The notes: generated by a model from the letters alone, not told the origin. 49,969 nucleotides of DNA from Candidatus Aquidulcis sp. (GCA_020723365.1 DYJB01000002.1:7749-57717); one strand, 5' to 3'. Counted from the stretch's first letter, positions 926-44,066 are shown. A program made the numbers and translations.

Positions 926-2185
926 ATGAGCGACTCGGCTGACCTGCGCAGACGATTGTCCCGCCTCGGGCGCCGCGCGGCGCGGTCCGTGCAGCCCGCG
1001 CCCACACGCCCGAGCGGCACCGCCCCACTGCCTGGCGAGGAAATCGCGACGACGTCCGGCGCCGCCTACCGCCTGCAGCGCTCCTTCCCCTCCGACCACC
1101 AGCACGGCCTGGGCCGCCTGGACGACCTGCTTGCCTTCGACACGCTGCTCGCTGCGGACGTGGCCCGACAGCCGGCGCTGGCGGATACTCGCATCGAGCG
1201 GCTGCTCTTCCTCGACACGGAAACCACGGGGCTGGCAGGCGGGGCGGGGACGCTGGCCTTCCTGGTGGGCGTGGGATCCTTCACGCCCGAAGGCTTCCGA
1301 CTGCGCCAGTACTTCTTGCGTGACCCGGCCGAGGAATCTGCCATGCTCCTGGCGCTGGAGGAGGACCTCGAGGCGGCGATGGGGCTGGTGACCTTCAACG
1401 GGCAGGTCTTCGATCTGCCGCTGCTCGAGGCGCGCTATATCGTCGGGCTGAGGCGGCGCCGCAACCTGGTCGCCTCACCGCACCTGGACCTACTGCATCC
1501 CTCACGCCGTCTGTGGTCGCGCGCCTTGCCCGACTGCAGCCTGAGTACCATTGAGCGGCAGGTCCTTGGCCTGCAGCGCAGCGAGGCCGATATCCCCGGA
1601 GCGCTGATCCCCGACCTGTACCGCGAATACCTGCGCAGCGGCGATCCGGGCGGGATGCAGCGCGTGATCTACCACAATGCCATGGACGTGCTTTCGTTGG
1701 TGGGGGTCGCCACCCAGGTGCTCGGGCGACATCGGCAGGGGGACCTAGGGCAGCTCTCAGCCTCCGAAGCGCTGGCCGTCGGCCGCTGGCACCAACGAGC
1801 CGGCCGCTCTTCCCCGGCCGAAAACGCCTTGCGGTCGGCGGTCGACACTTCGCAAGGCTCCCTCCACCTCGAGGCGCTGCGGCGGCTGGCCGAGTACCTC
1901 AAGCGCGAGGGACGGGCGGTGCAGGCCTTGGCCGCGTGGGCCGAGTGGCACGATCGTGCTCCTGCCGATCCCCGGCCGTGCGTCGAGCTGGCGAAGTACT
2001 ACGAGTGGGAAGGGCACGATGTGGACCAGGCGTCCTACTGGACTCAGGAAGCGCTCGACACCCTGAGGCGCTGGCCGGACGATTGGCGCCGGCAGGAGGA
2101 AGAGACGCGCCTGGTGCGTCGGCAGTCTCGCCTGGACGGCAAGCGCAGCATCTCTGCTGCCGGCGGCGGCGGGCTGGCGAGCTAG
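926..2185 (+). CDS. YprB/COG3359-like RNase H-fold exonuclease with C-terminal TPR-like helical region
   Basis: LLFLDTETTGL, VTFNGQVFDLPLLEARY, HLDLLHPSRRLW and YHNAMDVLSLV match the YprB-type RNase_H_2 pattern. The C-terminus has helical repeats (LAEYLKREGR, ELAKYYEWEG). Confidence 0.75.
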   Translation: MSDSADLRRRLSRLGRRAARSVQPAPTRPSGTAPLPGEEIATTSGAAYRLQRSFPSDHQHGLGRLDDLLAFDTLLAADVARQPALADTRIERLLFLDTETTGLAGGAGTLAFLVGVGSFTPEGFRLRQYFLRDPAEESAMLLALEEDLEAAMGLVTFNGQVFDLPLLEARYIVGLRRRRNLVASPHLDLLHPSRRLWSRALPDCSLSTIERQVLGLQRSEADIPGALIPDLYREYLRSGDPGGMQRVIYHNAMDVLSLVGVATQVLGRHRQGDLGQLSASEALAVGRWHQRAGRSSPAENALRSAVDTSQGSLHLEALRRLAEYLKREGRAVQALAAWAEWHDRAPADPRPCVELAKYYEWEGHDVDQASYWTQEALDTLRRWPDDWRRQEEETRLVRRQSRLDGKRSISAAGGGGLAS

Positions 2186-2589
2186 GCCTGCTGCAGCGAG
2201 CTCGCCGCGTGTTCGAAGCGCGCCCGGGCGTCGGAGGCGACGCGGCGGAGTTCGGGAGTCAGCGCCAGGGATCCGACGCCCGGCATGAGCTCGGGATTGA
2301 CCGGCGAGGCCCACACGCCGTCCTGACGCTGCTCGGCAACGACGTTGCATGGCAGGAAAAGGCCGGCGCGGGCGTCGCCCGAGAGCGCGGCATGAGCCGG
2401 CGGCGGGTTGCACGCCCCCAGGATCACGAACGGGCGGAAGTCCTTTCCAAGCCTGTCCTCGAAGGCGGCGGGCACGTCGATGCGCGTCAGCACACCGAGG
2501 CCTTCCTTCGAACGTGTCCCGGTCACGGTGTCCGGGGCCGCAGCGAAGGATAGGTTCAGGCGCAGCTCAAGCCCGATCGGCTGCTCCAT
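2182..2589 (-). CDS. DUF302 family protein
   Basis: Start moved to ATG 2589 (MEQPIGLELRL). FVILGACNPP and LFLPCNVV segments are typical of DUF302. The stop overlaps the stop of the convergent 926-2185 gene. Confidence 0.7.
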   Translation of the reverse strand: MEQPIGLELRLNLSFAAAPDTVTGTRSKEGLGVLTRIDVPAAFEDRLGKDFRPFVILGACNPPPAHAALSGDARAGLFLPCNVVAEQRQDGVWASPVNPELMPGVGSLALTPELRRVASDARARFEHAASSLQQA

Positions 2590-2611
2590 GACTCGCCTGG
2601 CAGCCTCAGGC

Positions 2612-3412
2612 CTATCGGGCCGTGGCGACGCTGTTGAGCTCATCGCGCACCGCCCGGTACAGGTGTTCGGCCTTCAGCTCCTGCAGCGTATAGCACGGCC
2701 CGCCGAGGCGATCGGCCAGGCCGCGCGCCAGCCCCTGGTCGAACGCGGCATGCTCCATGTTGATCACCACCGAGCGGACGTCCTGCGATTTCAGCAAGTC
2801 GGCCACCTGGTGGGCTTCCTCCTGCGGAGGCAGCGGGCCCATCGAGACGTTGCCGGCGCCGTCGGTGAGCAGGATCATGAGCGGCAGGACGTCGGGGTGG
2901 GAGAGCTTCTCCTGCTGCAGCGTTTCCAGGGCCAACCGCAGCCCGGCCGAAAGCGGCGTCTTGCCCCCTACAGGGATATCGGCGAGCGCTCGCTGGGCCA
3001 GCTGAACGGAGTTCGTCGGTGGAAGGACGGTCAGCGCACGGTCCTTCTGGAAGACGATCAATCCGACCCGGTCGCGGCGTTGGTAAGCGTCCGTCAGCAG
3101 CGACAGGATGGCGCCCTTGGTGGCCGACATGCGTTCGGCGACGGCCATCGACCAGGAGGCGTCGACGACGAACAGGATCAGGTTGGCGGCCTTGCGCACG
3201 CGCACCTTGCGCTGAAGGTCGGAGGTCTCGATGGCGAAGGCCACGCGCCGCCTCTGTTCCTTGCGCTTGATCTGGTGCGGTGCGGCGGCCCTCAGCGTGG
3301 CATCGAAGGCGATATCGGTCTTGGTGCCGTTCGCCGGGCGAGCGGTGATGTAGCGGCCTCGTTTGCGGTCGGTGCGGGTTTGCGTGCGGCGGCCGCCCAG
3401 CCGGCGGGTCAT
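2612..3412 (-). CDS. vWA-domain protein resembling the C-terminal half of Mg-chelatase subunit D (ChlD/BchD); the frame stays open upstream to 3595
   Basis: MIDAS motif DASWS in LILFVVDASWSM, plus LLTDGAGN. The RGRYI and FDATLRAAAPHQ segment is as in ChlD. No start codon lies upstream of ATG 3412 although the frame is open and coding-like. Confidence 0.8.
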   Translation of the reverse strand: MTRRLGGRRTQTRTDRKRGRYITARPANGTKTDIAFDATLRAAAPHQIKRKEQRRRVAFAIETSDLQRKVRVRKAANLILFVVDASWSMAVAERMSATKGAILSLLTDAYQRRDRVGLIVFQKDRALTVLPPTNSVQLAQRALADIPVGGKTPLSAGLRLALETLQQEKLSHPDVLPLMILLTDGAGNVSMGPLPPQEEAHQVADLLKSQDVRSVVINMEHAAFDQGLARGLADRLGGPCYTLQELKAEHLYRAVRDELNSVATAR

Positions 3413-3570
3413 GCGGTCGAGCTGGCCTTCCAGGCGGCGGGGGTTGAAGGATTCGCCGGTCTTGACCTTGTCGCCCCCCTCCCACCAGTTGGCCTGGAGC
3501 GAATCGACCGGGGCCTGCTGGGCAGGTTCGGCCAGTCCACGCCGCTGCTCGTCGGCCGTCGCCTCGCGGG

Positions 3571-4677
3571 CTACCCCGCGGGGCTCACTTTTTTTTTATC
3601 GGCGGGCTGGGGCTCGGAGGCCGGCTCGGATTCGTAGGCCGCGCCGACCTGCGCCTGGGCCTGGTCGATGCGGGCCTGCAGGTCGTCGAGGGTGATCTCG
3701 CTCTGGTGGAACGGGCCGCGGCGCAGGCGGTGGGGAAGCGCCAGTTCGGCCGCCAGGGCGATATCGAGGTCGGTGATGGCGGTGCGGGCTTCGAAAGCGG
3801 CCTGAGCGCGGGCGGCCTTGAGGATCACCAGGTCGGCGCGGTGACCATCGACCTGAAGGGACGAGGTCAGGGCGGCGATGGACAGCAGGTTGCGCTTGCT
3901 GTAGGTGACGCGGTCGACCAGCCGTCGGGCGGCGTCGATCGTCTGTGAGAGGCTTCCTTCCTGGCTGAGCCAGTGGTCGCGGAAGCCCTGGCCGTCGGCC
4001 TCGAAGGCCAAGTTGCGTTCGATGATGGCCACCCGCTCGGCCAGCTCGGAGATGCCCCGGATATCGACCGACAGGGCAAAGCGGTCGAGCAGCTGCGGGC
4101 GCAGGTCGCCTTCCTCCGGGTTCATCGTCCCGACCAGGATATAGCGCGCCGGGTGGGCAAAGGAGATGCCCTCGCGCTCGACGATGTTCATGCCCAGGGC
4201 GGCCGAGTCCAACAGCAGGTCGACGACGTGGTCATCGAGCAGGTTGACCTCGTCGATGTACAGCAGGCCCCGGTTGGCGGCCGCCAGGACCCCGGCCTCG
4301 AAGCGGCGCTCGCCGCGCTTGATGGCGGCTTCGATGTCGAGCGTGCCGACGACCCGGTCTTCGGTGGCCGATACGGGCAGGTCGACGAAGGACGTGCGCC
4401 GCATCTCGACCGGAAGCTCTTCGCCGCAGGCCACTCGCTCGCGGCACTCGGTGCACCAGGTGGTGGGCTGATCGGGGTCGCAGGCGAAGCGGCAGTCGGC
4501 GACGACGCGCACTTCGGGGAGCAGGGCCGCCAGCGCCCGGGCGGCGGTCGACTTGGCGGTGCCGCGCTCGCCGCGGATCAGCACGCCGCCGATGCGCGGA
4601 TTGACGGCATTGAGCAGCAGCGCCCGGCGCATGCGCTCCTGTCCGACAATGGCGGTGAAGGGGTAGACGACGGCCAC
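3571..4677 (-). CDS. ChlI/BchI-type AAA+ chelatase-family ATPase
   Basis: VYPFTAIVGQERM N-terminus, Walker A GERGTAKST, Walker B LLYIDEVNLLDDH, Cys-rich insert CRFACDP..CTEC. Start set at GTG 4677 (GGAG 7 nt upstream, TATAAT at 4701-4696) because the ATG-4950 extension runs antisense into rpsA. Confidence 0.85.
   Translation of the reverse strand: MAVVYPFTAIVGQERMRRALLLNAVNPRIGGVLIRGERGTAKSTAARALAALLPEVRVVADCRFACDPDQPTTWCTECRERVACGEELPVEMRRTSFVDLPVSATEDRVVGTLDIEAAIKRGERRFEAGVLAAANRGLLYIDEVNLLDDHVVDLLLDSAALGMNIVEREGISFAHPARYILVGTMNPEEGDLRPQLLDRFALSVDIRGISELAERVAIIERNLAFEADGQGFRDHWLSQEGSLSQTIDAARRLVDRVTYSKRNLLSIAALTSSLQVDGHRADLVILKAARAQAAFEARTAITDLDIALAAELALPHRLRRGPFHQSEITLDDLQARIDQAQAQVGAAYESEPASEPQPADKKKVSPAG
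3589..3597 (-). other. A9 homopolymer (T9 on + strand): candidate -1 frameshift or transcriptional slippage site
   Basis: GAT AAA AAA AAA GTG lies 5 codons before the TAG of the ChlI-like ORF. The -1 frame continues into the vWA ORF. A GC hairpin at 3580-3565 starts 8 nt downstream. Confidence 0.45.
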
Positions 4678-4732
4678 AGCAGAGCTCCGACGGGCATTAT
4701 ACCCCTCGCCCCGCGCGCCCGGCGGGCGTCCG

Positions 4733-4761
4733 TTGTCAAGACAACCGTCTACCCTTATAAT
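4733..4761 (+). promoter_or_regulatory. Sigma-70-type promoter of rpsA (TTGTCA - 17 nt - TATAAT)
   Basis: -35 TTGTCA at 4733-4738 and -10 TATAAT at 4756-4761. An A-rich leader without an obvious SD follows. Confidence 0.6.
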
Positions 4762-4796
4762 CTCCCCATCCTGTTCCAAAGAAAAGGCATCGTTCG

Positions 4797-6146
4797 ATGG
4801 AGAACAATCCGCAGACCATCGGGTCAGAGCCCGGCCAGCCCAACGAAGCGGGGGCGGCCGATGTTCATCCGATGGACGCCCTCCTCGGGGGGGAGTCGCT
4901 GGACATGGAGACTCCGCGCCGGGGCGAGATCCGTCGGGGCACGATCGCACGCGTGTCCGATGGCGACGTCCTGGTCGACATCGGCGCCAAGTCCGAAGGC
5001 ATCATCCCGGCCCGCGAGCTCGAGCAGCTGCCTGACGAAGTGCGCCAGGGGCTGATCGTGGGCGCCGAGATCAGCGTCTACGTCATTCGCGCCGGCGGCG
5101 GGGAGGACGGCCTGGTCCTTTCGCTGGCCCGCGCCGAGGAAGAGCACGACTGGTCCGAGGCCGAGGGCCTGCTCGCCTCCCAGGAGACGCTGCACGGCTC
5201 GGTCGCCGGCTACAACAAGGGCGGGCTGATCGTCAAGCTCGGTCACCTGCGTGGCTTCATCCCTGCCTCCCAGGTCAGCCTGTCCCGCCGCCGCCGGGCG
5301 GAGGGCGAGACCCCCGACAAGCGCTGGGGCAAGATGGTCGGCGAGCCGATCGTGGCCAAGGTCATCGAGGTCGATCGGCGGCGCAACCGGCTGATCCTCT
5401 CGGAGCGCGCGGCGGCCCGCGAGGCTCGCAAGGTCCTCAAGGAACACCTGATCACGGAGCTGCAGGCCGGCGAGATCCGCAGCGGGCATGTCATCAGCCT
5501 GGCGGACTTCGGCGCCTTCGTCGACATCGGAGGCGCCGACGGCCTGGTGCACCTCTCGGAGATCTCCTGGCGCCGCATCGGCCATCCCAAGGACCTGCTC
5601 AAGGTCGGGCAGGAAGTCCAGGTGAAGGTGCTGGGCGTGGATCCGGAGCGCAAGCGCATCAGCCTGTCGATGCGCGAGCTCGAGCCCGACCCGTGGGAGA
5701 CGATCGCCAAGCAGCTCAAGGAAGGCCAGCTGGTGGAGGGTCAGATCACCAAGCTGACCAAGTTCGGGGCTTTCGCCAGCCTGAAGGGCATGGAAGCCTA
5801 CGAGATCGAAGGCCTGATCCACATCTCCGAGCTCTCCGATCGGCGCGTCGAGCATCCGCGCGAGGTGCTGGAGGAAGGCCAGACGGTGTCGCTGCGTGTC
5901 ATCAAGCTCGATCAAGAGCGTCGCCGCATCGGCCTGAGCCTCAAGCGCGTCGACTCGGCCGAGTATGCCGACACGGATTGGCAGACGGCGATGCGCGATC
6001 TGAGCGAGGACGGACCTCGCCCGGCGCCGGAAGCTGAAGAGGACTTCGACGCCGACCTGGAAGCCGAGACTCCTCCCGAACCCGGGACGCCGCCTGAACC
6101 CGAGGCGCCGCCCGAGTCCGAGGGCGAAAGTCCTGCGGCGGCCTGA
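4797..6146 (+). CDS. rpsA: 30S ribosomal protein S1 (four S1 domains, acidic Pro-rich tail)
   Basis: Repeated S1 OB-fold modules (GTIARVSDGDVLVDIG, GYNKGGLIVKLGHLRGFIPASQ, GHVISLADFGAFVDIG, GQITKLTKFGAFASL). Confidence 0.9.
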   Translation: MENNPQTIGSEPGQPNEAGAADVHPMDALLGGESLDMETPRRGEIRRGTIARVSDGDVLVDIGAKSEGIIPARELEQLPDEVRQGLIVGAEISVYVIRAGGGEDGLVLSLARAEEEHDWSEAEGLLASQETLHGSVAGYNKGGLIVKLGHLRGFIPASQVSLSRRRRAEGETPDKRWGKMVGEPIVAKVIEVDRRRNRLILSERAAAREARKVLKEHLITELQAGEIRSGHVISLADFGAFVDIGGADGLVHLSEISWRRIGHPKDLLKVGQEVQVKVLGVDPERKRISLSMRELEPDPWETIAKQLKEGQLVEGQITKLTKFGAFASLKGMEAYEIEGLIHISELSDRRVEHPREVLEEGQTVSLRVIKLDQERRRIGLSLKRVDSAEYADTDWQTAMRDLSEDGPRPAPEAEEDFDADLEAETPPEPGTPPEPEAPPESEGESPAAA

Positions 6147-6155
6147 ATTCCAGCC

Positions 6156-6190
6156 GGGCCGGGTCTTTCGAGACCCGGCCCTTTTCTTTC
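6156..6190 (+). terminator. Rho-independent terminator after rpsA
   Basis: GGGCCGGGTCT-TTCG-AGACCCGGCCC (11 bp stem, UUCG loop) followed by TTTTCTTTC. Confidence 0.8.
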
Positions 6191-6235
6191 CTATGCAACG
6201 CTAACGCGCCCGTCAGGCAGAAGCGGGGCCATGTT

Positions 6236-6244
6236 TGGTAGAAT
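6236..6244 (+). promoter_or_regulatory. Extended -10 (TGGTAGAAT) upstream of clpC
   Basis: TGnTAGAAT lies 48 nt upstream of GTG 6292. GGGAGGG RBS at 6276-6282. Confidence 0.45.
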
Positions 6245-6291
6245 GAGACCAGTTCGGGACGAATTGCGTACCCGGACGGGAGGGCCGTGAC

Positions 6292-8806
6292 GTGGCCGAC
6301 AAGATGGAACGCTTCACGCAGCGCGCCCGGCGGGTGTTGAGCCTGGCGCACGAGGAAGCGGAACGACTGCATCACAACTACATCGGCACGGAGCACCTGC
6401 TGCTGGGCCTCATTCGCGAGGAAGGCGGCGTGGCGGGCCGCGTGCTGCGTGAGCTCGGGCTGGACACAGCCCGCGTCAAGGAAATGGTCGAGCGGCTGAC
6501 GGGCGTCGGCCGGCAGGGCGGCATGCACGTCGAGCTCTCGCCGGGGACCGAGCAGGTGCTGCAGTACGCCATCGAGGAAGCCCGCCGCATGGGCCATCAC
6601 TACATTGGCACCGAACACCTGCTGCTCGGGCTGGTTCGGCAGGGTGAGGGGGTGGGGATCGAGGTGCTGCGACGCCTGGGCATCACCCCCGAGCAGGTGC
6701 GCCGCCAGACACGGCGTGTGCTCCAGGAAAGCCCGGCGCAGCCGCCGCAGCCGCAGAAGGCCTCCCAGGCCGTCTCGGCCTCTCGCAGCAAAGACAAGGA
6801 AGCCAAGACGCCGCTGGTCGACCAGCTGGCGACGGATCTGACCGCCCTGGCCGAGGAAGGCAAGCTCGATCCGGTTGTCGGCCGCCAGATGGAAATCGAG
6901 CGCGTGATCCAGATCCTGGCGCGGCGTACGAAGAACAATCCGGCGTTGATCGGCGAGCCGGGTGTGGGCAAGACGGCCATCATCGAGGGCCTGGCGCAGC
7001 GGATCGTTTCCGGGGACACCCCCGAGCCGCTGCTCGGCAAGCGCCTGCTGCAGCTCGACGTCGGCTCGCTGGTGGCCGGGACGATGTACCGCGGGCAGTT
7101 CGAGGAGCGCCTCAAGCGCGTCATCGACGAGCTCAAGTCGGCCCAGGCCATCCTGTTCATCGACGAGGTCCACATGCTGGTGGGCGCCGGCTCGGCCGGG
7201 TCGTCGGTGGACGCCGCCAACATCCTCAAGCCTGCCCTGTCGCGGGGCGAGCTGCAGGTGATCGGCGCCACCACCCTCGATGAATACCGCAAGCACATCG
7301 AGAGCGATGCCGCCCTTGAACGCCGCTTCCAGCCGGTCATGGTCGAGGAGCCGTCGGTCGAGGAGACGATCCAGATCCTGCACGGCGTGCGCAAGCCGTA
7401 CGAGGAGCACCACAAGCTGATCATCACGGACGAGGCGCTGGAGGCGGCGGCGCTGCTCTCGTCGCGCTACGTGAGCGAGCGCTTCCTGCCGGACAAGGCC
7501 ATCGACCTGATCGATGAGACTTCGTCGCGGGTGCGCATGTACAAGAGCCCGGCGGCCAAGACGATGCGCCAGACGCTGGACGATCTCAAAGCCACCCGCC
7601 AGGCCCACGCCCAGGCAGTGGAGGAAGCCCGCTTCGACGACGCCCAGGAACTGATGGTGCGCGAGAGCGGGCTGGAGCAGAAGCTGACTCAGCTGCGCGC
7701 CGGCTGGGAGCGCAATGACGACAGCCCGAGGGTGACGGCCGAGGATATCGCCGAAGTCGTTTCGATGTGGACCGGCGTGCCCGTGACCCAGATCGCCCAG
7801 GAAGAGTCGGTCCGCCTGCTGCTGATGGAGAAGGCGCTGCACGAGCGCATCATCGGCCAGGATGAGGCCATCGACAGCATCTCCAAGGCCGTGCGCCGGG
7901 CGCGGGCGGGGTTGAAGGACCCCAAGCGCCCCGTCGGTTCGTTCATCTTCCTGGGGCCGACGGGCGTCGGCAAGACCGAACTGACCAAGGCGCTGGCCGA
8001 ATTCATCTTCGGCAGCGAGGAAGCGCTGGTCCAGATCGATATGTCCGAGTTCATGGAGCGCCACAGCGTCAGCCGGCTGGTGGGTGCGCCGCCCGGCTAC
8101 GTGGGCTACGAGGACGCCGGCCAACTGACCGAGGCGTTGCGCCGACGGCCGTACTCGATCGTGGTCTTCGACGAGATCGAGAAGGCGCATCCCGAGGCGC
8201 ACAACATGCTGTTGCAGATCATGGAGGAAGGGCACCTGTCCGACGCCCGCGGGCGGAAGGTCGACTTCCGTAACGCCATCATCGTGATGACCTCCAATGT
8301 CGGGGCTGAGATGATCCGCAAGACCACGCAACTCGGCTTCGCCGTTCCGCGCGATGAAGCGGCCGACACACGACGCCTATGACGACATGCGCAAGACGCT
8401 GACCGAGGCGATGCGCAAGGTGTTCCGGCCGGAGTTCCTCAACCGGGTGGATGCCACCGTGGTCTTCCACGCCCTGACCCGGGAACAGATCGCCGAGATC
8501 GTCGATCTCGAATTGGCCAAGGTCGGGCTGCGGCTGCGCGAGCATGCCATTCAGCTGCGGGCTTCGCCGGAAGCGCGGCAGAAGCTTGCCGACCTGGGCT
8601 ACGATCCTGAGATGGGCGCCCGGCCGCTCAAGCGCGTGATCCAGAGCAAGGTCGAAGACCGGCTTTCGGATGCGGTGTTGGCCGGGGAGTTCAAGAACGG
8701 CGACCGTGTCCTGGTGGACCTGGCCGGGGACGAGATCGTGCTGCGGCCGGATCTGGCCGAACCCCAGGGCGAGGCCGAAGCGGCCCTGCCGGCCGGCGAC
8801 GCCTGA
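6292..8806 (+). CDS. clpC: ATP-dependent Clp protease ATP-binding subunit ClpC, interrupted by an apparent +1 frameshift between 8341 and 8382
   Basis: Two Clp_N repeats ([11 protein letters not shown] twice), Walker A GEPGVGKT and GPTGVGKT, and the sensor region [10 protein letters not shown] in the second ORF (8354-8806). The two ORF-track pieces overlap by 29 nt in different frames. Confidence 0.85.
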
Positions 8807-8837
8807 CGGCAACAACCTTCACCGCTCGTGCAACATC

Positions 8838-8860
8838 GGGGCGGCCCGTCGGGCCGCCCC
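8838..8860 (+). terminator. GC hairpin after clpC
   Basis: GGGGCGGCCC-GTC-GGGCCGCCCC followed by CGCTTGTTCG (weak T tract). Confidence 0.5.
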
Positions 8861-8933
8861 CGCTTGTTCGTGCCCCTCGCCGGCCGCGGCAGGCGCGGTT
8901 CTATAATGATGCTGCCGATGGACGGAGGGTGGT

Positions 8934-9434
8934 ATGCCCAGGCACGGCGGAATCCCTCTGCTCTTGCTGTTGACCTGCGGACTGGCGCTGGCCGGCTGTG
9001 CCGCGCCAGCACCGAGCCCGGCAGCTGACGAGGCCGCGGGCGCTCAGGAGGCGCTGACGTCCTTCCTGGGCCTGCTGGCCGAAGGGCGGTACGACCAGGC
9101 GGCGGCGATGTACGCGGGTCCGCTTGACTCGCTGTACAGCTTCAACCCGGAGCTCGAACCTCAGGATGGCGCTGCGCTGATCGGGTATGCCTGCGGCCAG
9201 CGCCTGCTGCAGTGCCTGCCGGTGCGTTCGATCAGCCTGGCGGAGGCACCGGCGGGAGAGGACATACTCTTCAAGGTCGAGTTCAACCTCGAGGACGGCT
9301 CGCTGTTCGTCCTCGGCCCATGCTGCGGGGCGACGTCGACGGAGATGCCGCCGGTCTCAAGCTTCGAATTTCGCGTCCGGCCGGACTCCGCCGGAGGCTA
9401 CTCCGTCCTGGACCTGCCGCCGTACGTTCCTTGA
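8934..9434 (+). CDS. Hypothetical lipoprotein
   Basis: Lipobox-like LALAGC signal peptide, GGAGGG RBS, TATAAT at 8902-8907, GC3-rich frame. Confidence 0.6.
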   Translation: MPRHGGIPLLLLLTCGLALAGCAAPAPSPAADEAAGAQEALTSFLGLLAEGRYDQAAAMYAGPLDSLYSFNPELEPQDGAALIGYACGQRLLQCLPVRSISLAEAPAGEDILFKVEFNLEDGSLFVLGPCCGATSTEMPPVSSFEFRVRPDSAGGYSVLDLPPYVP

Positions 9435-9509
9435 GCCTGACCCGACGCGCGCTGTCCCGTCCGGTCGCCGGCCGGCGCACAGCTCCATCCTCGATCCGGG
9501 AGTCATGGC

Positions 9510-10910
9510 ATGCCCACCCGCCTCCGAACGCAGTACGTCTGCCAGCAGTGCGGCCGGACCGCCGCCCGGGAGCTCGGCCGCTGCCCGCAGTGCGGGGCGT
9601 GGAACAGCATGGTCGGCGAGGCGGTAGCTCCTCCCAAGCCGCGGCGTGTGGGGACTCCCACGTCTGGCAGCCGCCGGGCGCCGCAGAGGCTGGCGGAAAT
9701 CGAGGGCGAGGCCGAAGCCCGGCTGGCCCTCCCGATCGAGGAGTTCGCGCGAGTGCTCGGCGGCGGGATCGTGCCGGCCTCGGTCGTGCTGGTGGGCGGC
9801 GAGCCCGGCATTGGCAAGTCGACGCTGCTGCTGCAGATGGCCGTCCAGATGGCTCACCACGGTCCGGTGCTGTACGTTTCGGGGGAGGAGTCCGAGCGCC
9901 AGATCAAGGCCAGAGCGCAGCGGCTGTTCGGCGCGCAGGGCGTGCCGGACGGGCTGTTTCTGTACAGTGAGACCGACCTGGAGTCCATCATCCATCACCT
10001 GGAGAGCCTGCAGCCGATCCTGGCGGTGATCGATTCGATCCAGACCGTCTACCTGCCCGAGCTTGACTCCTCCGCCGGCTCGATCACGCAGGTGCGCGAC
10101 TGTGCCTCCCGGCTCCAGGCCGTGGCCAAGGCCGGCGGGACGGCCATCTTCCTGGTGGGCCATGTGACCAAAGAGGGCGCCATCGCCGGGCCCCGCGTGC
10201 TCGAGCACATCGTCGACACGGTCCTCTACCTCGAAGGCGATCCGTTCCACGCCTACCGCCTGTTGCGTTCGGTCAAGAATCGCTTTGGCGCTACGACCGA
10301 GGTGGGCGTGTTCGAGATGGGCGCCGGGGGCATGGCCGAGGTCCCCAATCCATCCGAGGCCTTCCTGGCCGAGCGCGTGGTCAACGCTCCGGGATCGGCC
10401 ATCGCCGTGACGATGGAGGGCACGCGCCCGCTGCTGGTGGAGGTCCAGGGCCTGACGAGCCCGACGAGCTTCGGACACCCGCGCCTCACCGCCAATGGCG
10501 TTGACCTGAACCGGCTGCTGCTGACAATCGCCGTGTTGACCCGGCGCGTCGGCCTGAAGCTGGCCGAGCAGGATGTGTTCGTCAACGTGGTCGGCGGGCT
10601 GCGGGTCGAGGAGCCGGCGGCGGACCTGGCGATTGCCGCCGCGCTGGCCTCCTCGGTATGGGACCGAGCATTGCCGGCGGACACGGCGCTGATCGGTGAG
10701 GTGGGCTTGTCCGGCGAGCTGCGCGCCGTCGGTCAGCTCCCGGCGCGCCTGCGCGAGGCGGCGCGGTTGGGGTTCCGACGCGCCATTGTGCCCGTGAGCC
10801 CACGCCTCGAGCGGGGTGGAGCCGAGAATCTGTCGGTGGTCGAAGCGCGCAGCGTGCGCGAGGCGCTGAGGCTGGCAGCGCCCGAGGGCCGGTCATCGAA
10901 CGAGGAGTGA
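9510..10910 (+). CDS. radA: DNA repair protein RadA
   Basis: N-terminal Zn ribbon CQQCG..CPQCGAWNS, Walker A GGEPGIGKSTLLLQ, KNRFG motif, Lon-like C-terminal domain. Confidence 0.92.
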   Translation: MPTRLRTQYVCQQCGRTAARELGRCPQCGAWNSMVGEAVAPPKPRRVGTPTSGSRRAPQRLAEIEGEAEARLALPIEEFARVLGGGIVPASVVLVGGEPGIGKSTLLLQMAVQMAHHGPVLYVSGEESERQIKARAQRLFGAQGVPDGLFLYSETDLESIIHHLESLQPILAVIDSIQTVYLPELDSSAGSITQVRDCASRLQAVAKAGGTAIFLVGHVTKEGAIAGPRVLEHIVDTVLYLEGDPFHAYRLLRSVKNRFGATTEVGVFEMGAGGMAEVPNPSEAFLAERVVNAPGSAIAVTMEGTRPLLVEVQGLTSPTSFGHPRLTANGVDLNRLLLTIAVLTRRVGLKLAEQDVFVNVVGGLRVEEPAADLAIAAALASSVWDRALPADTALIGEVGLSGELRAVGQLPARLREAARLGFRRAIVPVSPRLERGGAENLSVVEARSVREALRLAAPEGRSSNEE

Positions 10911-11428
10911 ACCCCGTCAGCCTGCGCGGGTCGCGCCGACGGGCCCGATTCTGGCGAGCAGAGATTCCGGAGTTTCCTTCGGACCGCCCTTGCCGCGAGG
11001 GAGGCGTCCTCGATTTAAGGTATCCACTCTCCGTAAGGATCCCCGCAGTGGGGGCCGCGTTCTATGCCACATCTGGGCGGCGATCGGGGGAGGAGTGCGC
11101 ATGTGGGACGCAGGCGCGTGGTGTGGCTGCGCGCAACAAGCGCGGCAGCGGCGCTCCCTGCGGCGTGTCGTTAACAAAGCGGCGCCTTAAAACATCGGTT
11201 GTTTTTAGGTTGTCGACGCTCAAACACCTTGAAGCCGGCGCGTGGGTTTGCTAGAATGCACTTGTTGATCGATCGATGGTCCATGCCGGCGATACGTTGA
11301 TCGATCCTCGCGGGTAGCCGTCTCCCCGACGGTGGTTAGCCACAGGTCGCAGGCAGTTGGGTGTCCGAACCGGGGCGGGCGCGTTTCCGCCCAAGGGGAA
11401 TCTGCGTCCCGGTTCCTGGGAGAATCGC
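10911..11428. other. radA-dnaA intergenic region: weak oriC / dnaA control region candidate
   Basis: 518 nt with no convincing ORF. DnaA-box-like GTATCCACT (11020-11028, 7/9) and TTAGCCACA (11336-11344, 8/9). Relatively AT-rich stretch at 11171-11230. GTTGATCGATC occurs twice. Confidence 0.25.
11249..11257 (+). promoter_or_regulatory. Extended -10 (TGCTAGAAT) upstream of dnaA
   Basis: TGnTAGAAT lies 172 nt upstream of ATG 11429. Confidence 0.4.
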
Positions 11429-12772
11429 ATGAGCGCGGAGCGTCTTTGGCAGGCGGCCCTGGGGCAACTCCAGATGGAGATGCCGCGTGCGACGTTCGAT
11501 ACCTGGGTCCGCGACGCCGAGCTCCTGGCTCACGAGGATGGGGCCTACATCATCGGGGTGCAGAACGCCTACGCCCGCGACTGGCTCGAAGACCGGATGC
11601 TGGCGACGGTCAAGCGCGTGCTGACCGGGCTGGCGGGCCGCACGGTCGAGGTGCGTTTCGTCGTCTGGCAGGGTGAGCCCTCGGACGAGCCGGCTGCGGC
11701 GGCGGTTCCCTCCCCGGCGGCGGCCTCCCCGCTGAGGACTTCCTCGGTCCCGCTGAACCCGCGCTACTCCTTCGAGAACTTCGTGGTTGGGCCGAGCAAC
11801 CGCCTGGCGCATGCCGCCTCGATGGCGGTGGCCGAGAATCCGGCCCGGGCCTACAACCCGTTGTTCCTGTACGGCGGGGTGGGATTGGGAAAGACCCACC
11901 TGCTGCACGCCGTGGGCAATACCACCGCCGCCCAGGGTCTGCAGGTGCTGTACGTCTCATCGGAAGACTTCACCAACGACTTGATCAACGCCATCCGCAG
12001 CCACACGACCGAGGCCTTCCGCGAGCGCTACCGCCGCATCGACGTGCTGCTGATCGATGACATCCAGTTTATCGCCGGCAAGGAGTCGACCCAGGAGGAG
12101 TTCTTCCACACCTTCAACGCGCTTCACGGGCAGGACAAGCAGCTGGTCATCTCGTCCGATCGCCCGCCGAAGGCGCTGGTCACGCTCGAGGAGCGGCTGC
12201 GCTCACGCTTCGAGTGGGGACTGACGGCCGACATCCAGCCCCCGGACCTCGAGACCCGGCTGGCGATCCTGCGCTCCAAGGCGGAACGGGCCGGCAGGGT
12301 GGTCGATGACCTGCATCTGGAGCTGGTTGCCCGGCGGGTGCAATCCAACATCCGCGAGCTGGAAGGCGCGCTGACGCGGGTGCTGGCCTACTCGGACCTG
12401 AGCAACCAGCCCCTTTCGACGGACCTGATCGAGATCGCCCTGGCGGACCTGCTGCCCCGCCCCGGGGCGCTGACGGCCGACCGCATCATCGCCGCCGTCG
12501 CCGAGTACTTCGACCTGCCCGAGGCGGACCTGCTGGGCCGCGGGCGCTCGCGGGACGTGGCGCTGCCGCGCCAGATCGCCATGTACCTGATGCGCGAGGA
12601 GACCCAGGCGTCGCTGCCGCAGATCGGCGAATCGCTGGGCGGGCGCGATCACACCACGATCATGTACGGCTGCGACAAGATCATCGCGCAGCTGGAGACC
12701 GACGATGGAATGCGCCGGAAGGTGGCCGCCATCCGCGAGGCGCTCTACAACCGAGTTCGCCAGCCCGGCTAG
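11429..12772 (+). CDS. dnaA: Chromosomal replication initiator protein DnaA
   Basis: MSAERLWQAALGQL N-terminus with GGGAGA RBS 5 nt upstream. Walker A GGVGLGKTHLLHA, LLIDDIQF, and the C-terminal DNA-binding helix (HTTIMYGCDKI). Confidence 0.95.
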   Translation: MSAERLWQAALGQLQMEMPRATFDTWVRDAELLAHEDGAYIIGVQNAYARDWLEDRMLATVKRVLTGLAGRTVEVRFVVWQGEPSDEPAAAAVPSPAAASPLRTSSVPLNPRYSFENFVVGPSNRLAHAASMAVAENPARAYNPLFLYGGVGLGKTHLLHAVGNTTAAQGLQVLYVSSEDFTNDLINAIRSHTTEAFRERYRRIDVLLIDDIQFIAGKESTQEEFFHTFNALHGQDKQLVISSDRPPKALVTLEERLRSRFEWGLTADIQPPDLETRLAILRSKAERAGRVVDDLHLELVARRVQSNIRELEGALTRVLAYSDLSNQPLSTDLIEIALADLLPRPGALTADRIIAAVAEYFDLPEADLLGRGRSRDVALPRQIAMYLMREETQASLPQIGESLGGRDHTTIMYGCDKIIAQLETDDGMRRKVAAIREALYNRVRQPG

Positions 12773-38695: not shown

Positions 38696-40318
38696 ATGAG
38701 CACCGTCATTCGCATCGGCACCTCCACGTGCGGGCAGGCGGCGGGGGCCGAATCGGTCGTCAGCGCCGTCAACGCCTACGTCGATCGCCGTCAGGTTCCG
38801 GTGACGGTCCAGCGCACCGGCTGCCTGGGCGCCTGCCACAACGAGCCGCTGGTGGAAGTGACCGACAACGACGTGGCCGTCCTCTACGGGCCGGTCAGCC
38901 CCGAGCGCGTCAGCCTGGTGCTGGACCGGCACTTCGGGGGCGGAGGCGGCCGCTGGGTCGATCCGTCGTGGATCCTCAGCCGGCGTCCCGATCACGACGA
39001 CTTCCCCTTCCTGGCGCGGCAGACCAAGGTGACCACCCGCCTGTGCGGCGTCATCGATCCGATGTCGCTCGACGACTACCTGGCCAACGGCGGGTACATG
39101 GCGTTGCGCGACGCGCTGCGCATGCCGCCGGAGAAGGTCATTGCCGCCGTCAAGGACTCGCGCCTGCGCGGGCGCGGGGGCGCGGGCTTCTCGACCGGCA
39201 CCAAGTGGGAGATCACCCGCCGCCAGCCGGCCAGCCCCAAGTTCCTGATCTGCAACGCCGACGAGGGCGACCCGGGCGCCTTCATGAACCGCACCATGAT
39301 CGAGGGCGATCCGCACCGCGTCCTGGAAGGCATGCTCATCGCCGCCTGGGCCATCGGCGCCTCCAAGGGCTACCTGTACGTGCGGGCCGAATACCCGCTG
39401 GCGGTCAAGGCGCTGCGCAATGCCATTCGCCAGGCTGCCGAGTATGGCGTCACCGGCAAGAACATCCTCGGCAGCGGCCTGGATTTCGAGTTCGTGATCA
39501 AAGAGGGCGCCGGGGCCTTCGTCTGCGGCGAGGAGACGGCGCTGATGCACTCGATCGAAGGGCAGCGCGGGACGCCGAGCATGCGCCCGCCCTATCCCTC
39601 GGTGGCCGGCCTGTGGGGCTATCCCACCAACATCAACAACGTCGAGTCCTTCGCCAGCATTCCCTCCATCCTGCTGCACGGGCCGGCCTGGTTCGCCGCC
39701 CTGGGGACGGAGCAGTCCGGCGGGACCAAGGCCTTCGCCCTCACCGGCGCCGTGCGCGCCTCCGGGCTGGTGGAGGTGCCGCTGGGAACCCCGCTGCGCA
39801 CGCTGGTGGAGGAGATCGGCGGCGGCTGTAAGAGCGACCGGCCGGTGAAGGCCGTCCAGCTGGGGGGCCCATCGGGAGGGTGCGTGCCGGCCGAACTGCT
39901 CGACACGCGCATCGACTACGAGGACCTGCGGCGCACCGGCGCCATCATGGGTTCGGGCGGCATGGTGGTGGTCGACGACACGACCTGCATGGTCGATTTC
40001 GCCCGCTACTTCCTGACCTTCACCCAGGACGAATCCTGCGGCAAGTGCGTGCCGTGCCGCGTCGGCACGCGCAAGATGCTCGGCATCCTGACCAAGATCT
40101 GTCACGGGCAGGGGACGCATCAGGACCTGGAGAGGCTGACGCGCCTGTGCGAGACGGTGCGCACCGGATCGTTGTGCGGCCTGGGCACCACGGCGCCCAA
40201 TCCCGTCCTGACGACCATGCGCTACTTCGAGCGCGAGTATGTGGCGCACGTCGATGCCGGGCTGTGCCCCGCCGGGATCTGCAGCATGCGTCCCGGCACG
40301 TCCACCCGGGCTGCCTGA
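38696..40318 (+). CDS. NuoF-like NAD(H)-binding flavoprotein subunit with N-terminal thioredoxin-like domain
   Basis: GRGGAGFSTGTKWE (FMN site), ADEGDPGAF, SCGKCVPCRVGT (4Fe-4S). Confidence 0.88.
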   Translation: MSTVIRIGTSTCGQAAGAESVVSAVNAYVDRRQVPVTVQRTGCLGACHNEPLVEVTDNDVAVLYGPVSPERVSLVLDRHFGGGGGRWVDPSWILSRRPDHDDFPFLARQTKVTTRLCGVIDPMSLDDYLANGGYMALRDALRMPPEKVIAAVKDSRLRGRGGAGFSTGTKWEITRRQPASPKFLICNADEGDPGAFMNRTMIEGDPHRVLEGMLIAAWAIGASKGYLYVRAEYPLAVKALRNAIRQAAEYGVTGKNILGSGLDFEFVIKEGAGAFVCGEETALMHSIEGQRGTPSMRPPYPSVAGLWGYPTNINNVESFASIPSILLHGPAWFAALGTEQSGGTKAFALTGAVRASGLVEVPLGTPLRTLVEEIGGGCKSDRPVKAVQLGGPSGGCVPAELLDTRIDYEDLRRTGAIMGSGGMVVVDDTTCMVDFARYFLTFTQDESCGKCVPCRVGTRKMLGILTKICHGQGTHQDLERLTRLCETVRTGSLCGLGTTAPNPVLTTMRYFEREYVAHVDAGLCPAGICSMRPGTSTRAA

Positions 40319-40331
40319 GCGGAGGGTTGCC

Positions 40332-43175
40332 ATGATCTCCCTGACACTGGACGGCCGAGCGATCCAGGTGCAGCCCGGGACCAACGTCCTGCAGGCGGCC
40401 CTGTCCAACGGCATCCACATTCCGCACCTGTGCCATCACCCCGACCTGCGCCCGTCCGGCGGCTGCCGTCTGTGCATGGTCGAGATCGGCGGCCGGCCGA
40501 ACCCGGCGGCGGCGTGCGGGCTGCTGGCCGAAGAGGGCATGGCCGTCACGACTCAGAGCGAGCGCCTGACGGAGATGCGCCGCGAGATCATCGACCTGTT
40601 CGTCTCCGATCACCCGCTGCGCTGCGTCACGTGCGACAAGAACGGCGTGTGTGCCCTGCAGCGCTACGCCTACGACTACGGCATCTCCGAAACCAGTTTC
40701 GACTTCGAGCTCTCGCGCACGCTGTACCAGGACGACAACCCGATGTTCGTGCGCGACCACCAGTACTGCATCCTGTGCGGACGGTGCACGCGGGTGTGCG
40801 ACGAAATCGTGGGCGCCAATGCCATCGAGATCTCCGGCCGCGGCTTCGTCAGCCACGTGGCCACACCCTTCGATTGGGCCATGTCGGACTCCACCTGCGT
40901 CTTCTGCGGAAACTGCGTGCAGGTCTGCCCGGTGGCGGCGCTGATGCCGCGCGGCCGGATCGGCATGGGGCGCGAGTGGGAGCTCGAGCACGTGCGCACG
41001 ATCTGCGGCTACTGCGGCGTGGGCTGCGGCATCGACTACGCCGCCAAGGACGGCAAGATCCTCTACGCCCAGGGCTTCCCGGAGGCGGTCGTCAACGGCG
41101 AGTTCCTGTGCGTGAAGGGCCGCTTCGGGTGGGACTTCGTCGGGAACCCCGAGCGCCTCACCCGGCCGCTGGTGCGGCGCGACCTGGCACACCGCCTGGG
41201 CCTGATCGACGATCCCTTCTCCCTGCCGGAAGAGTCGGTCTTCACCAGCCGTATCGGGGTGGAGAACTTCGTGCCGGTCGACTGGGAGACGGCCGTCGAC
41301 ATCGTGGCCGGGCAACTGCTGGGCACGGTGGAGGCGCACGGACCGGACGCCGTCGCCGGGCTGACCTCGGCCCGCTGCACGAATGAGGACAACTACCTCT
41401 TCCAGAAGCTGATGCGGGTTGGGATCGGGACCAATAACATCGACCATTGCGCCCGGCTTTGACACAGCTCCACCGTCACCGGTCTGGTGACAGCGTTCGG
41501 CAGCGGGGCGATGACCAACAGCATTCGTGAGATCCGGCAGGCCGACTGCATCCTGATCACCGGCTCGAACACGGCTGAATCGCACCCGGTGATCAGCTAC
41601 GAAGTCATCCGGGCGGTCAAGAGCGGCGCCAACCTGATCCTCATTGACCCGCGCCGCGTGCCGCTGGCCCGCCACGCGACGCACTACCTGCAGGCACAAC
41701 CGGGAACCGATATCTACGTCTTTCTGGCCATGGCGCACCTCATCCTGCGGGAGGGGCTGGCCGACACGGAGTTCCTGGCGCAGCGTGTGGAAGGCTTCGA
41801 AGACTTCCGCGCCTGCGTGGCCGAGCACACTCCCGAAGCCGCCGCCCTCATCTCGGGGGTGCCGGCCGAGCAGATCGAGACGGCGGCGCGCCTGTACGCC
41901 GGCGGTGAGCGCGCCTTCGGCACCTCGGCCTTCGGCGAGGGGCGCGGGCACTCGACGATCCTGTACGCCATGGGCATCACCCAGCGGTCGATCGGAACGC
42001 AGCTGGTGCAGATGCTCGCCAACCTGGCCATGCTCACCGGGCAGGTGGGCAAGCCTTCCACCGGCGTCAATCCGCTGCGGGGCCAGTCGAATGTCCAGGG
42101 AGCCTGCGATGTCGGCGGGCTGCCGGAGTACCTGCCCGGCTACCAGCGCGTGGAGGACGACGTCAAACGCCGCCAGGTGGCGCAGGCGTGGGGACTGGAC
42201 GACCTGCCCTCCCGCGCCGGGCTGACGGTGGTCGAGATGATGCACGCCGCCGCCGAAGGCAAGCTCAAGGCCATGTACGTCATGGGGGAGAACCCCCTCA
42301 TGTCGGACCCGGACCTGCAGCACGTCGAGAAGGCGCTTCGCAACCTGGACTTCCTGGTGGTGCAGGACATCTTCTTCAATGAGACGGCGCAGCTGGCGCA
42401 CGTCATCCTTCCGGCGGCGGCCTCGCTCGAGAAGGACGGCACGATGACGAACACGGAGCGCCGCGTGCAGCTGCTGCGCCCCGTGGTCCGGGCCCCCGGC
42501 GAGGCCCGGCCTGACTGGTCGATCCTGGCGGAGGTGGGCACGCGCATCGACCGCCGGCGCGCCCTGGAACGCGAGGTCGAGTTCTGGGAATTCGCTTCGA
42601 CGGCCGACGTCATGGACGAGATCGCGACCGTTACGCCGATCTACCGGGGCGTACGCCACCACCGGCTGCGCCAGGCCGGCCTCACCTGGCCGGTGCCGGA
42701 CGCCCGGCACCCGGGAACACCCACGCTGCACGTGGGCACGTTCTCGCGCGGCAAGGGCCAGATGCTGCCGGTGACGGCCCAGATGCCGGCCGAGCAGCCC
42801 GACGCCGAGTATCCGCTGATCCTCTCGACCGGGCGCACGCTCTACCACTACCACTCGGGGACGATGACGCGCCGCAGTGAGGGTTTGGCGTGGCGTGAAC
42901 CGCGCAGCTATGCCGAGATCAACGAGGCGGATGCGGCCCGGCTTGGCGCGCGGGACGGCGGCCCGATCGTGATCGTGAGCCGGCGCGGCCAGGTACGGAC
43001 GCAGGCCCGGGTGGGGAAGCGCGTGCCGGCAGGCACGGTCTTCCTTTCCTTTCACTGGCGCGAGGCGCCGGCCAATCTGTTGACGCACGATTTCGGTCTC
43101 GACCCGAAGGCCAAGATCCCGGAGTACAAGATCTGCGCGGTGCGGGTGGAAGTGCCCAAGCGCGGGCGGGGCTGA
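40332..43175 (+). CDS. fdhA: Formate dehydrogenase catalytic subunit with in-frame TGA 41460-41462 read as selenocysteine
   Basis: N-terminal 2Fe-2S/4Fe-4S Cys clusters. NNIDHCARL-TGA-HSSTVTGL aligns with the FdhF Sec site. ORF-track pieces 40239-41462 and 41487-43175 are in the same frame. GGAGGG RBS before ATG 40332. Confidence 0.88.
41475..41491 (+). promoter_or_regulatory. Bacterial SECIS-like hairpin
   Basis: GTCACC-GGTCT-GGTGAC starts 12 nt after the TGA. The GGUC-containing loop resembles the E. coli fdhF SECIS. Confidence 0.65.
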
Positions 43176-43198
43176 GCCCGCATCCCCCGGCATGCGAA

Positions 43199-43218
43199 GG
43201 GCTGGCCCGTGCCAGCCC
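43199..43218 (+). terminator. Hairpin after fdhA
   Basis: GGGCTGGC-CCGT-GCCAGCCC followed by CTTTCG. Confidence 0.5.
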
Positions 43219-43289
43219 CTTTCGCGCCCGGAATCATTGCGGAAACGCGCCATCGCTGGTAGAAGTCCCTGACGGGGACAGGAGATCGA

Positions 43290-44066
43290 GTGGACGGCGG
43301 CGCGGTCGAGGCGCAGTGGCTCGAATACGGACGGGGATGGTCCTCCGTTCGGGCCGAAGTGATCGGCGAGATCCTGCTGACGATCTACGTCAACGGGCAG
43401 GAGTTCGCCTCGATCATGTCGACCCCGCGCGACCAGGCCGAGCTTGCGCTCGGCTTTCTCAAGAACGAGGGCGTCCTCGAGCGCATGGAGCAGGTGGAAG
43501 CGCTGATCGTCAACCGGGACGGCTGCTGCGTGGACCTCTGGCTCGACCGGCCTGTTCAGCGCCCCAAGCGGGAGATCCTGACGTCGGGCTGCGGCGGCGG
43601 GACGACCTTTCACGACCCGGGCGAAGCGCTGCCACCGATCGAGGCGAACGCACGCGTCAGCCCGGAAGTGCTCGTCGAGTTGATGGGCAGGCTGCACGGA
43701 CGGGAGAGCCTGCACGCGCGGGCGCGCGGCGTGCACACCGCCGGGCTTTCGGACGGGCGGGAGATTCTGGCGCTGGCGGAGGATGTCGGCCGCCACAACA
43801 CCATCGACAAGCTGACCGGGATGTGCTTGCTGCGCAACTTGCCCACGGCGGGACTGCTCCTGCTGACCACGGGACGGATCTCCTCGGAGATGCTGCGCAA
43901 GGGCGCCCGCATGGGGTGTCCTATCATCGCCTCGCGCAACTCGCCGACCTCGCTGGCGGTGACGATGGCCAAGGCGTGGAACCTGACGCTCGTCGGGTAC
44001 GTCCGGCGGGCGACGCTGCGCGTCTACGCCCACCCGGAGCGCCTCGGCTACCGTGCTCTACCTTGA
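43290..44066 (+). CDS. fdhD: Formate dehydrogenase accessory sulfurtransferase FdhD
   Basis: GTG start with CAGGAGA RBS. TSGCGGG and GRHNTIDKL motifs. Confidence 0.88.
   Translation: MDGGAVEAQWLEYGRGWSSVRAEVIGEILLTIYVNGQEFASIMSTPRDQAELALGFLKNEGVLERMEQVEALIVNRDGCCVDLWLDRPVQRPKREILTSGCGGGTTFHDPGEALPPIEANARVSPEVLVELMGRLHGRESLHARARGVHTAGLSDGREILALAEDVGRHNTIDKLTGMCLLRNLPTAGLLLLTTGRISSEMLRKGARMGCPIIASRNSPTSLAVTMAKAWNLTLVGYVRRATLRVYAHPERLGYRALP

Follow-up and report, generated by a model that had tools for sequence, protein, structure and literature searches.

The locus considered here lies in a stretch of 49,969 nucleotides (nt) from Candidatus Aquidulcis sp. (GCA_020723365.1, DYJB01000002.1:7749-57717), the whole of which is referred to below as the window. 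A gene for a ChlI/BchI-like AAA+ ATPase and an open reading frame (ORF) for a vWA-domain protein follow one another there on the minus strand, the second in the -1 frame relative to the first, and a run of nine adenines (A9) stands where the two frames meet. The subject of this analysis is the candidate recoding site formed by this run and the chlD-type gene that it would serve.

Two reading frames meeting at an A9 run

Read on the minus strand, the junction consists of GAT (3600-3598), the A9 run (3597-3589), the codons GTG AGC CCC GCG GGG and the stop TAG (3573-3571). The 368-residue protein of the 0 frame begins with VAVVYPFTAIVGQ, and this N-terminus lines up with the starts of 19 homologues. 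The TAA that closes the -1 frame at 3598-3596 and the TAG of the 0 frame together confine any shift to the interval between 3595 and 3574. From 3595 the -1 frame is uninterrupted to its stop at 2614-2612, and in the ORF listing the first ATG, GTG or TTG along it is at 3412; 50 of the 61 linker codons that precede this ATG end in G or C. A first-pass annotation of this DNA had already reported the junction sequence, its coordinates and the -1-frame translation, each of which matched when the minus strand was read again, as well as the missing start codons and the third-position composition of the linker, which were recomputed with the same result. It had also singled out the A9 run as the longest homopolymer noticed in the window, and a homopolymer count agrees: the run is the sole stretch of six or more A or T across 50 kb, where the base composition (69% G+C) leads one to expect about 0.004 runs of at least nine. 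Lysine codons away from the run are nearly always AAG, the rpsA-like gene having 19 AAG and 0 AAA, and the AAA+ ORF has no AAA codons besides the three in the run. The features of the locus are collected in Table 1.

Table 1. Features at the chlD-type locus, with positions counted from the first letter of the window
Feature	Coordinates	Strand	Remarks
0-frame ORF, short product: ChlI/BchI-like AAA+ ATPase, 368 residues	3571-4677	-	start GTG 4677, stop TAG 3573-3571; translation, profile matches
Candidate A9 slip site, 0-frame codons AAA AAA AAA, in-phase heptamer A_AAA_AAA inside	3589-3597	-	
TAA closing the -1 frame directly upstream of the run	3596-3598	-	stop at -1 nt from the start of the run
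TAG ending the short frame, 15 nt past the run	3571-3573	-	
Startless -1-frame linker, 61 codons, conserved PxQ...WWEGG...F.PR..LD segment	3413-3595	-	
Remaining -1 frame: basic RKRGRYI segment and vWA/MIDAS domain (DASWS)	2612-3412	-	stop 2614-2612
GC-rich hairpin in which 3580-3575 and 3570-3565 form the core stem and the GUAG loop covers part of the stop	3561-3584	-	RNA folding

When the two frames are joined at the run (...PADKKK-SEPRG...), the resulting fusion has 688 residues, in line with the D-like fusion of about 690 residues and the I-like product of about 368 that the first-pass annotation had anticipated. The fusion matches the NCBIfam profile TIGR02442 ('putative cobaltochelatase') in a single stretch, residues 5-665 corresponding to profile positions 1-640 of 641, and it matches TIGR02031 (BchD-ChlD) over its whole length with 427.4 bits, under the cut-off of 499.55. 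These end-to-end alignments agree with the earlier impression that the linker and the basic segment resemble those of Mg-chelatase D. The AAA+ part on its own corresponds to TIGR02030 (BchI-ChlI; residues 5-327, profile positions 1-323 of 337) and contains the Pfam domains Mg_chelatase and AAA_lid_2, while Pfam VWA and VWA_2 occupy residues 501-650 of the fusion. In a protein alignment of the window fusion with its 19 homologues (20 sequences), the Walker B motif LYIDEVNLL and the MIDAS motif DxSxS, here DASWS (D506-S510), are both invariant. The same is true of P385, W398, W399, G401, G402, F411 and D421, all of which fall between the run (K361-K363) and M423, the residue encoded by ATG 3412, and invariant residues ahead of M423 indicate that conserved protein is encoded where no start codon exists. 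Ahead of P385 the linker has a single element conserved among the 20 homologues, the KKK where the run lies. These data support the view that the ChlI-like ORF and the -1 vWA ORF make up one ChlD-type gene in which an AAA+ module is followed by a linker and a vWA domain.

The AAA+ module has two peculiarities of its own. Its P-loop, GERGTAKS (residues 36-43; 4549-4572, minus strand), has Ala for the canonical Walker A Gly before Lys, an arrangement that is invariant in all 20 sequences; as one AAA+ module would have to serve both as the I subunit and as the N-terminus of D, this Ala might bear on ATPase competence. A four-cysteine insert, CRFACDPDQPTTWCTECRER, stands between the Walker A and Walker B motifs (residues 62-81 of the AAA+ ORF; 4434-4494, minus strand) and looks like a small metal-binding knuckle. 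Its C62, C66, C75 and C78 are nearly invariant in the 20 homologues, homologue P0039 being without the cysteines.

Run, frame and flanking signals in related genomes

An orthologue scan with one genome per species returned 80 loci, and frames and runs were computed for each of them. Thirty-four loci from Anaerolineae and other Chloroflexota share the -1 layout and have a run in the same place in the linker. In these the run is most often A9 (n=26) and otherwise A10 (n=3), A8 (n=2) or A7 (n=3), and the 0-frame stop lies 1-30 nt past it. The first start codon of the vWA frame is found anywhere from 6 to 407 nt past the run in nearly all 34, and this scatter points to the lack of a conserved independent vWA start. 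One Chloroflexia metagenome-assembled genome (L051, 7073-7081) has A9 at the same linker position and its vWA part in the +1 frame; unless the assembly is in error, such a layout calls for a transcript short of one A or for a ribosomal shift of +1.

Other relatives are in frame. Runs of A6-A10 are kept by nine in-frame loci from GTDB, four from Chloroflexota and five archaeal, and 3-59 nt downstream of them the -1 frame meets a stop; no run is present in distant in-frame relatives, among them Streptomyces and Dehalococcoidia. The closest orthologues of the window gene, P0002, P0001 and P0012 (75-82% identity), are themselves in frame, with runs of A10, A10 and A9 respectively, and the window gene has one A fewer than the two with A10. 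All three keep near stops in both alternative frames, and the -1 stop lies at or below the 24th percentile of the background in 7/7 in-frame Chloroflexota genes. At the site homologous to the window TAG the in-frame orthologues also have a TAG, in the frame that is +1 relative to the long frame, and the long-frame codons that form it are rare and A-ending: GTA in the window and in L084, TTA in L086 and CTA in L087. GTA makes up 3 of the window's 51 Val codons, and the L086 gene has no other TTA. Within one clade, then, the tract is retained both where the 0 frame gives the short product and where it gives the long one. What the first-pass annotation had proposed to look for in orthologous loci is present in part, in that the A-run and the -1 layout recur in 34 genomes, while its hairpin is not conserved and the closest orthologues are in frame.

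The archaeal in-frame homologues that keep a run (L005, L006, L023, L027 and L032, from Methanosarcinales, Methanophagales and Methanobacteriota) have linker runs of A6-A9. In four of the five the run occupies that same place in the linker and a stop in the -1 frame follows 8-14 nt downstream; in L032 the run is found well after that place, where the linker ends, with the -1-frame stop 59 nt away. Stops in the +1 frame are far from the run in these loci (102-184 nt), a layout that fits a dnaX-like -1 route to the short form.

A downstream stimulatory RNA structure is described in the literature as usual for frameshifted chlD. On folding, the hairpin CGCGGG-GUAG-CCCGCG (3580-3565) does form at the site where the first-pass annotation had placed it, and it extends to 3584-3561; it is the most stable 32-nt window in its own gene and is built from codons for the conserved peptide PRGVARE. 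The stretch has a folding energy of -31.9 kcal/mol over 81 nt (z -1.45 against dinucleotide shuffles, 17 of 200 of which fold as well). Over the 34 loci of -1 layout no conserved downstream RNA structure was found (mean z -0.54; local-window percentiles not different from uniform, Kolmogorov-Smirnov p 0.08), and structure below the 10th percentile, that is, of unusual stability, follows the run in 6 of them. The hairpin therefore does not stand as a conserved stimulator, and a local enhancer outside any conserved signal is one possible role for it. Nor was a conserved upstream Shine-Dalgarno (SD)-like stimulator found in these loci, 8 of 34 having an SD-like 4-mer at 9-20 nt, or any other flanking motif, information content being low except at the first bases past the run, where the stop is close by. 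An Rfam scan of 3300-3800 gave chance-level matches only (E 0.14 and 0.86, far below the gathering scores).

Weighing the recoded gene against its rivals

Whether the run is truly A9 was asked in the first-pass annotation, and at the level of assemblies the question has an answer. An identical vWA ORF of 266 residues is present on three further assemblies of independent origin (JGI 3300037461, Logan SRR22387877 and Logan ERR11772596), all with A9 and the same frames, which with the window makes 4/4 assemblies of the species, in a look-up by vWA ORF that detects split versions of the gene only. The JGI contig represents a different strain, with 6 single-nucleotide polymorphisms (SNPs) in 340 nt, and of the 5 SNPs past the run, 4 fall on the third position of a -1-frame codon and leave the residue unchanged (CGG to CGC, CGT to CGC, GGA to GGC and GAA to GAG). 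To judge from these substitutions, the -1-frame linker is under purifying selection in a strain that has A9. A search of 5.8 billion proteins found no fused in-frame protein above 82% identity; the best fused hits, among the 120 matches listed, have 64-82% identity and nearly all measure 645-736 residues, with one of 591. With the best fused protein at only 82% identity, no record of an A10 form exists for this species.

It is highly probable that the A9 run is the recoding site of a frameshifted chlD (fs-chlD, of the 'putative cobaltochelatase' family) in an Anaerolineae-like Chloroflexota bacterium. The idea put forward in the first-pass annotation, of one gene giving an I-like protein by standard decoding and a D-like protein after a -1 event, finds support in the profile matches, the linker residues, the SNPs, the 34 genomes and the A9 of the three further assemblies. 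Several points count against this interpretation. The TIGR02442 score of the fusion, 760.7 bits, is just under the curated cut-off of 779.45. The long form is something we infer, as are the production of both proteins, their ratio and the identity of the machine that slips. Since the closest orthologues are in frame, the sequence would also accommodate a recent inactivating deletion of one nucleotide in the window gene; a frame break in the clpC gene of the same window, described below, means that the assembly may contain indel errors; and no large subunit lies near the gene to support its presumed enzymatic role.

The rival explanations, namely phase variation, separate genes and assembly error, are improbable even when combined. 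The one that survives best, itself a very unlikely one, is variation at the level of DNA, in which slipped-strand mispairing would make A9 (short product only) and A10 (long product only) alternative genotypes, or in which the A9 allele would be a broken, recent pseudogene. Run length and frame do toggle between close lineages, from A9 in the -1 layout to A10 in frame and to A9 in the +1 layout of L051. Within the species, however, all four assemblies have A9, and purifying selection is apparent on the -1 linker of an A9 strain; in 34 species the gene has stayed split, with the 0-frame stop right past the run, which is unexpected for decaying pseudogenes. The motor of Mg-chelatase requires both I and D subunits, and the window has no separate chlI. 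Homologous A-run cassettes, moreover, frameshift at 10-63% in E. coli (PMC3711429).

Still less credit can be given to two separate genes, with the vWA protein initiated on its own at ATG 3412, or at a CTG-like start, by translational coupling. That ATG is present, gene callers annotate a 266-residue vWA protein from it, and internal initiation is listed among the mechanisms to consider for adjacent ORFs (Antonov, 2013; PMC3711429). Yet 61 conserved coding codons, with their invariant residues and with 4/5 strain SNPs synonymous, precede ATG 3412 and contain no ATG, GTG or TTG; no GGAGG-like site lies ahead of 3412, and the first start codons of relatives, spread over the 6-407 nt past the run, include none that is conserved. 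Least probable of all is a homopolymer length error, in which the true genome would have A10 and a plain in-frame fused chlD and the A9 of the window would be an artefact: the A10 of the closest syntenic orthologues (79-82% identity) and the clpC frame break of the same window, with its split ORF on record in no other assembly, would suit it, but three independent assemblies from different projects, one of a divergent strain, give A9, no fused version of the species' protein above 82% is in the protein collection, and A9 in the -1 layout occurs in 26 other species.

For the preferred fs-chlD reading the following course of expression may be proposed. Standard decoding, the route of most ribosomes, would yield the 368-residue ChlI-like AAA+ small subunit that ends at TAG 3573-3571, and a fraction of expression events would enter the -1 frame inside the A9 run. 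They could do so by -1 ribosomal slippage of two tRNA-Lys in tandem on A_AAA_AAA, or by the addition of one A to the transcript by RNA polymerase, and both routes would lead to the same 688-residue ChlD-like medium subunit with the junction ...PADKKKSEPRG.... We lean slightly toward a large share for transcriptional slippage, with both routes possibly contributing. A transcriptional share is favored by a modal run of 9-10, which exceeds the need of a heptamer, by the lack of a conserved downstream structure or SD-like element, by in-frame orthologues that keep the tract, both off-frame stops and the rare-codon TAG, and by the one locus in the +1 layout (L051). An in-phase A_AAA_AAN is present in every locus and favors, or at least permits, ribosomal slippage, but runs of at least eight provide it in any phase.

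The dnaX genes offer instructive parallels. In E. coli the tau and gamma products of dnaX arise by -1 ribosomal frameshifting at A_AAA_AAG, and in Thermus thermophilus dnaX is subject to transcriptional slippage on A9. The likeness lies in an A-rich slip site within an AAA+ gene and in long and short products that work in one complex; the in-frame orthologues found here, in which the long form is in the 0 frame and slippage would lead to the short one, mirror E. coli dnaX, and the length of the A9 run is that of the Thermus case. The polarity of the window gene is reversed with respect to dnaX, its 0 frame giving the short form, and the upstream SD-like element and downstream hairpin used by E. 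coli dnaX have no conserved counterparts in these loci. A more far-reaching proposal, which we regard as doubtful when its two parts are taken jointly, is that the A-tract in this Anaerolineae clade acts mainly through RNA polymerase slippage, with run length as an evolutionary dial, and that the two-product machine has a role other than cobalt or magnesium chelation. On such a dial A9 would place the short form and A10 the long form in the 0 frame, and changes of a single nucleotide would reset the I:D ratio.

The published family and the surroundings of the gene

Recoding of this kind was published between 2013 and 2022, and the window gene is an ordinary member of the family and a rediscovery. 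Antonov et al. (2013; PMC3711429) described, from bacteria and archaea, a cluster of magnesium-chelatase genes with -1 frameshifts, measured frameshifting of 63% (A11), 40% (A9) and 10% (A7) for cassettes in E. coli, and noted fused homologues in Chloroflexus and Rubrobacter; the suggestion in the first-pass annotation that frame transitions had already been predicted in chelatase genes was right, such transitions having been both published and reporter-tested (PMC3711429). The A_AAA_AAR site of these genes is under strong purifying selection according to the review of Atkins et al. (2016; PMC5009743), and Antonov (2020; doi 10.1093/molbev/msaa081) is cited for the proposal that cobalt chelatase's small and medium subunits derive from a single chlD gene. 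Kuznetsov et al. (2022; PMC9227772) found fs-chlD in all major phyla, naming Anaerolineae species and Brevefilum, together with AT-rich slippery sites and with genomes that have fs-chlD but neither a large subunit nor a B12 or chlorophyll pathway; some Chloroflexi genomes with fs-chlD are reported to have no large subunit at all.

The window gene agrees with the published cases in gene family, in the -1 relation of its ChlI-like and vWA parts, in its poly-A or A_AAA_AAR site, in the existence of in-frame fused homologues and in the proposed origin of small and medium subunits from one gene, and nothing essential differs. The genome itself may be absent from the published fs-chlD set. Two aspects might go beyond the literature compared here, the way in which syntenic orthologues switch between A9 (-1) and A10 (in frame) and keep their off-frame stops, and the conserved dnaA-proximal neighborhood without a large subunit. 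For biology the locus adds one more well-supported case to a family of recoded genes already published, and for annotation it means that the calls 'ChlI-like ATPase' and 'vWA protein' should become a single recoded chlD with two products, and that the vWA ORF should not be called from ATG 3412. The choice between ribosomal and transcriptional slippage, and the job of an I/D pair in Chloroflexi possibly without a large subunit, are questions already recognized in the field.

The domain content of the window gene is that of the classical chlI, chlD and chlH Mg-chelatase and of the cobaltochelatase formed by CobN with ChlI/ChlD. In contrast to the classical three-gene chelatase, there is no separate chlI or large subunit in the window or beside 38 related loci: no cobN, chlH, separate chlI or B12 gene was found in the 50-kb window, and no CobN-like gene, chlH or chlI within 6 kb of 38 related Chloroflexota loci. 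The cobaltochelatase role proposed in 2020 would call for a genome that has cobN and lacks a separate small-subunit gene. An ORF of 1337 residues (40020-44033, minus strand) was considered as a large subunit and rejected, having no Pfam match and lying antisense to formate dehydrogenase genes; the large ORFs near relatives proved to encode ClpC, a beta-helix protein and a lactonase-repeat protein. Given the neighborhood of S1, ClpC, RadA and DUF302 genes without a large subunit, a function unrelated to cobalt or magnesium chelation is conceivable.

Housekeeping functions prevail among the other genes of the window, which include those for S1 protein, Clp ATPase, RadA, DnaA, PriA, holA, holB, a penicillin-binding protein, a Ser/Thr kinase and formate dehydrogenase. 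As in the window (2182-12772), the closest orthologues P0002, P0001 and P0012 are flanked by DnaA-RadA-ClpC-S1 on one side and continue as chlD-(DUF302)-RNase_H_2 on the other, the DnaA/RadA/ClpC/S1 side being divergent from chlD; the block is found in L084, L085, L086 and L087. A DUF302 gene directly follows chlD in the window, L081, L084 and L086 and is absent from L087, the locus of P0012. The ClpC-like ATPase gene of the window (6292-8806, plus strand) is in two frames, with a break near 8373-8375 where there is no homopolymer. Against the L084 orthologue, one frame accounts for residues 1-689 and the next for residues 691-831, orthologues being single ORFs of 831 residues, and the split clpC ORF has no record in any other assembly searched; the break may be a true lesion or an indel of the assembly. 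Farther along, the gene for the alpha subunit of a molybdopterin formate dehydrogenase has an in-frame TGA (41460-41462, plus strand) in the context IDHCARL-TGA-HSSTV, which separates ORFs 40239-41462 and 41487-43175. As the TGA stands where selenocysteine classically occurs, both ORFs probably belong to one gene for a selenocysteine-containing FdhA.

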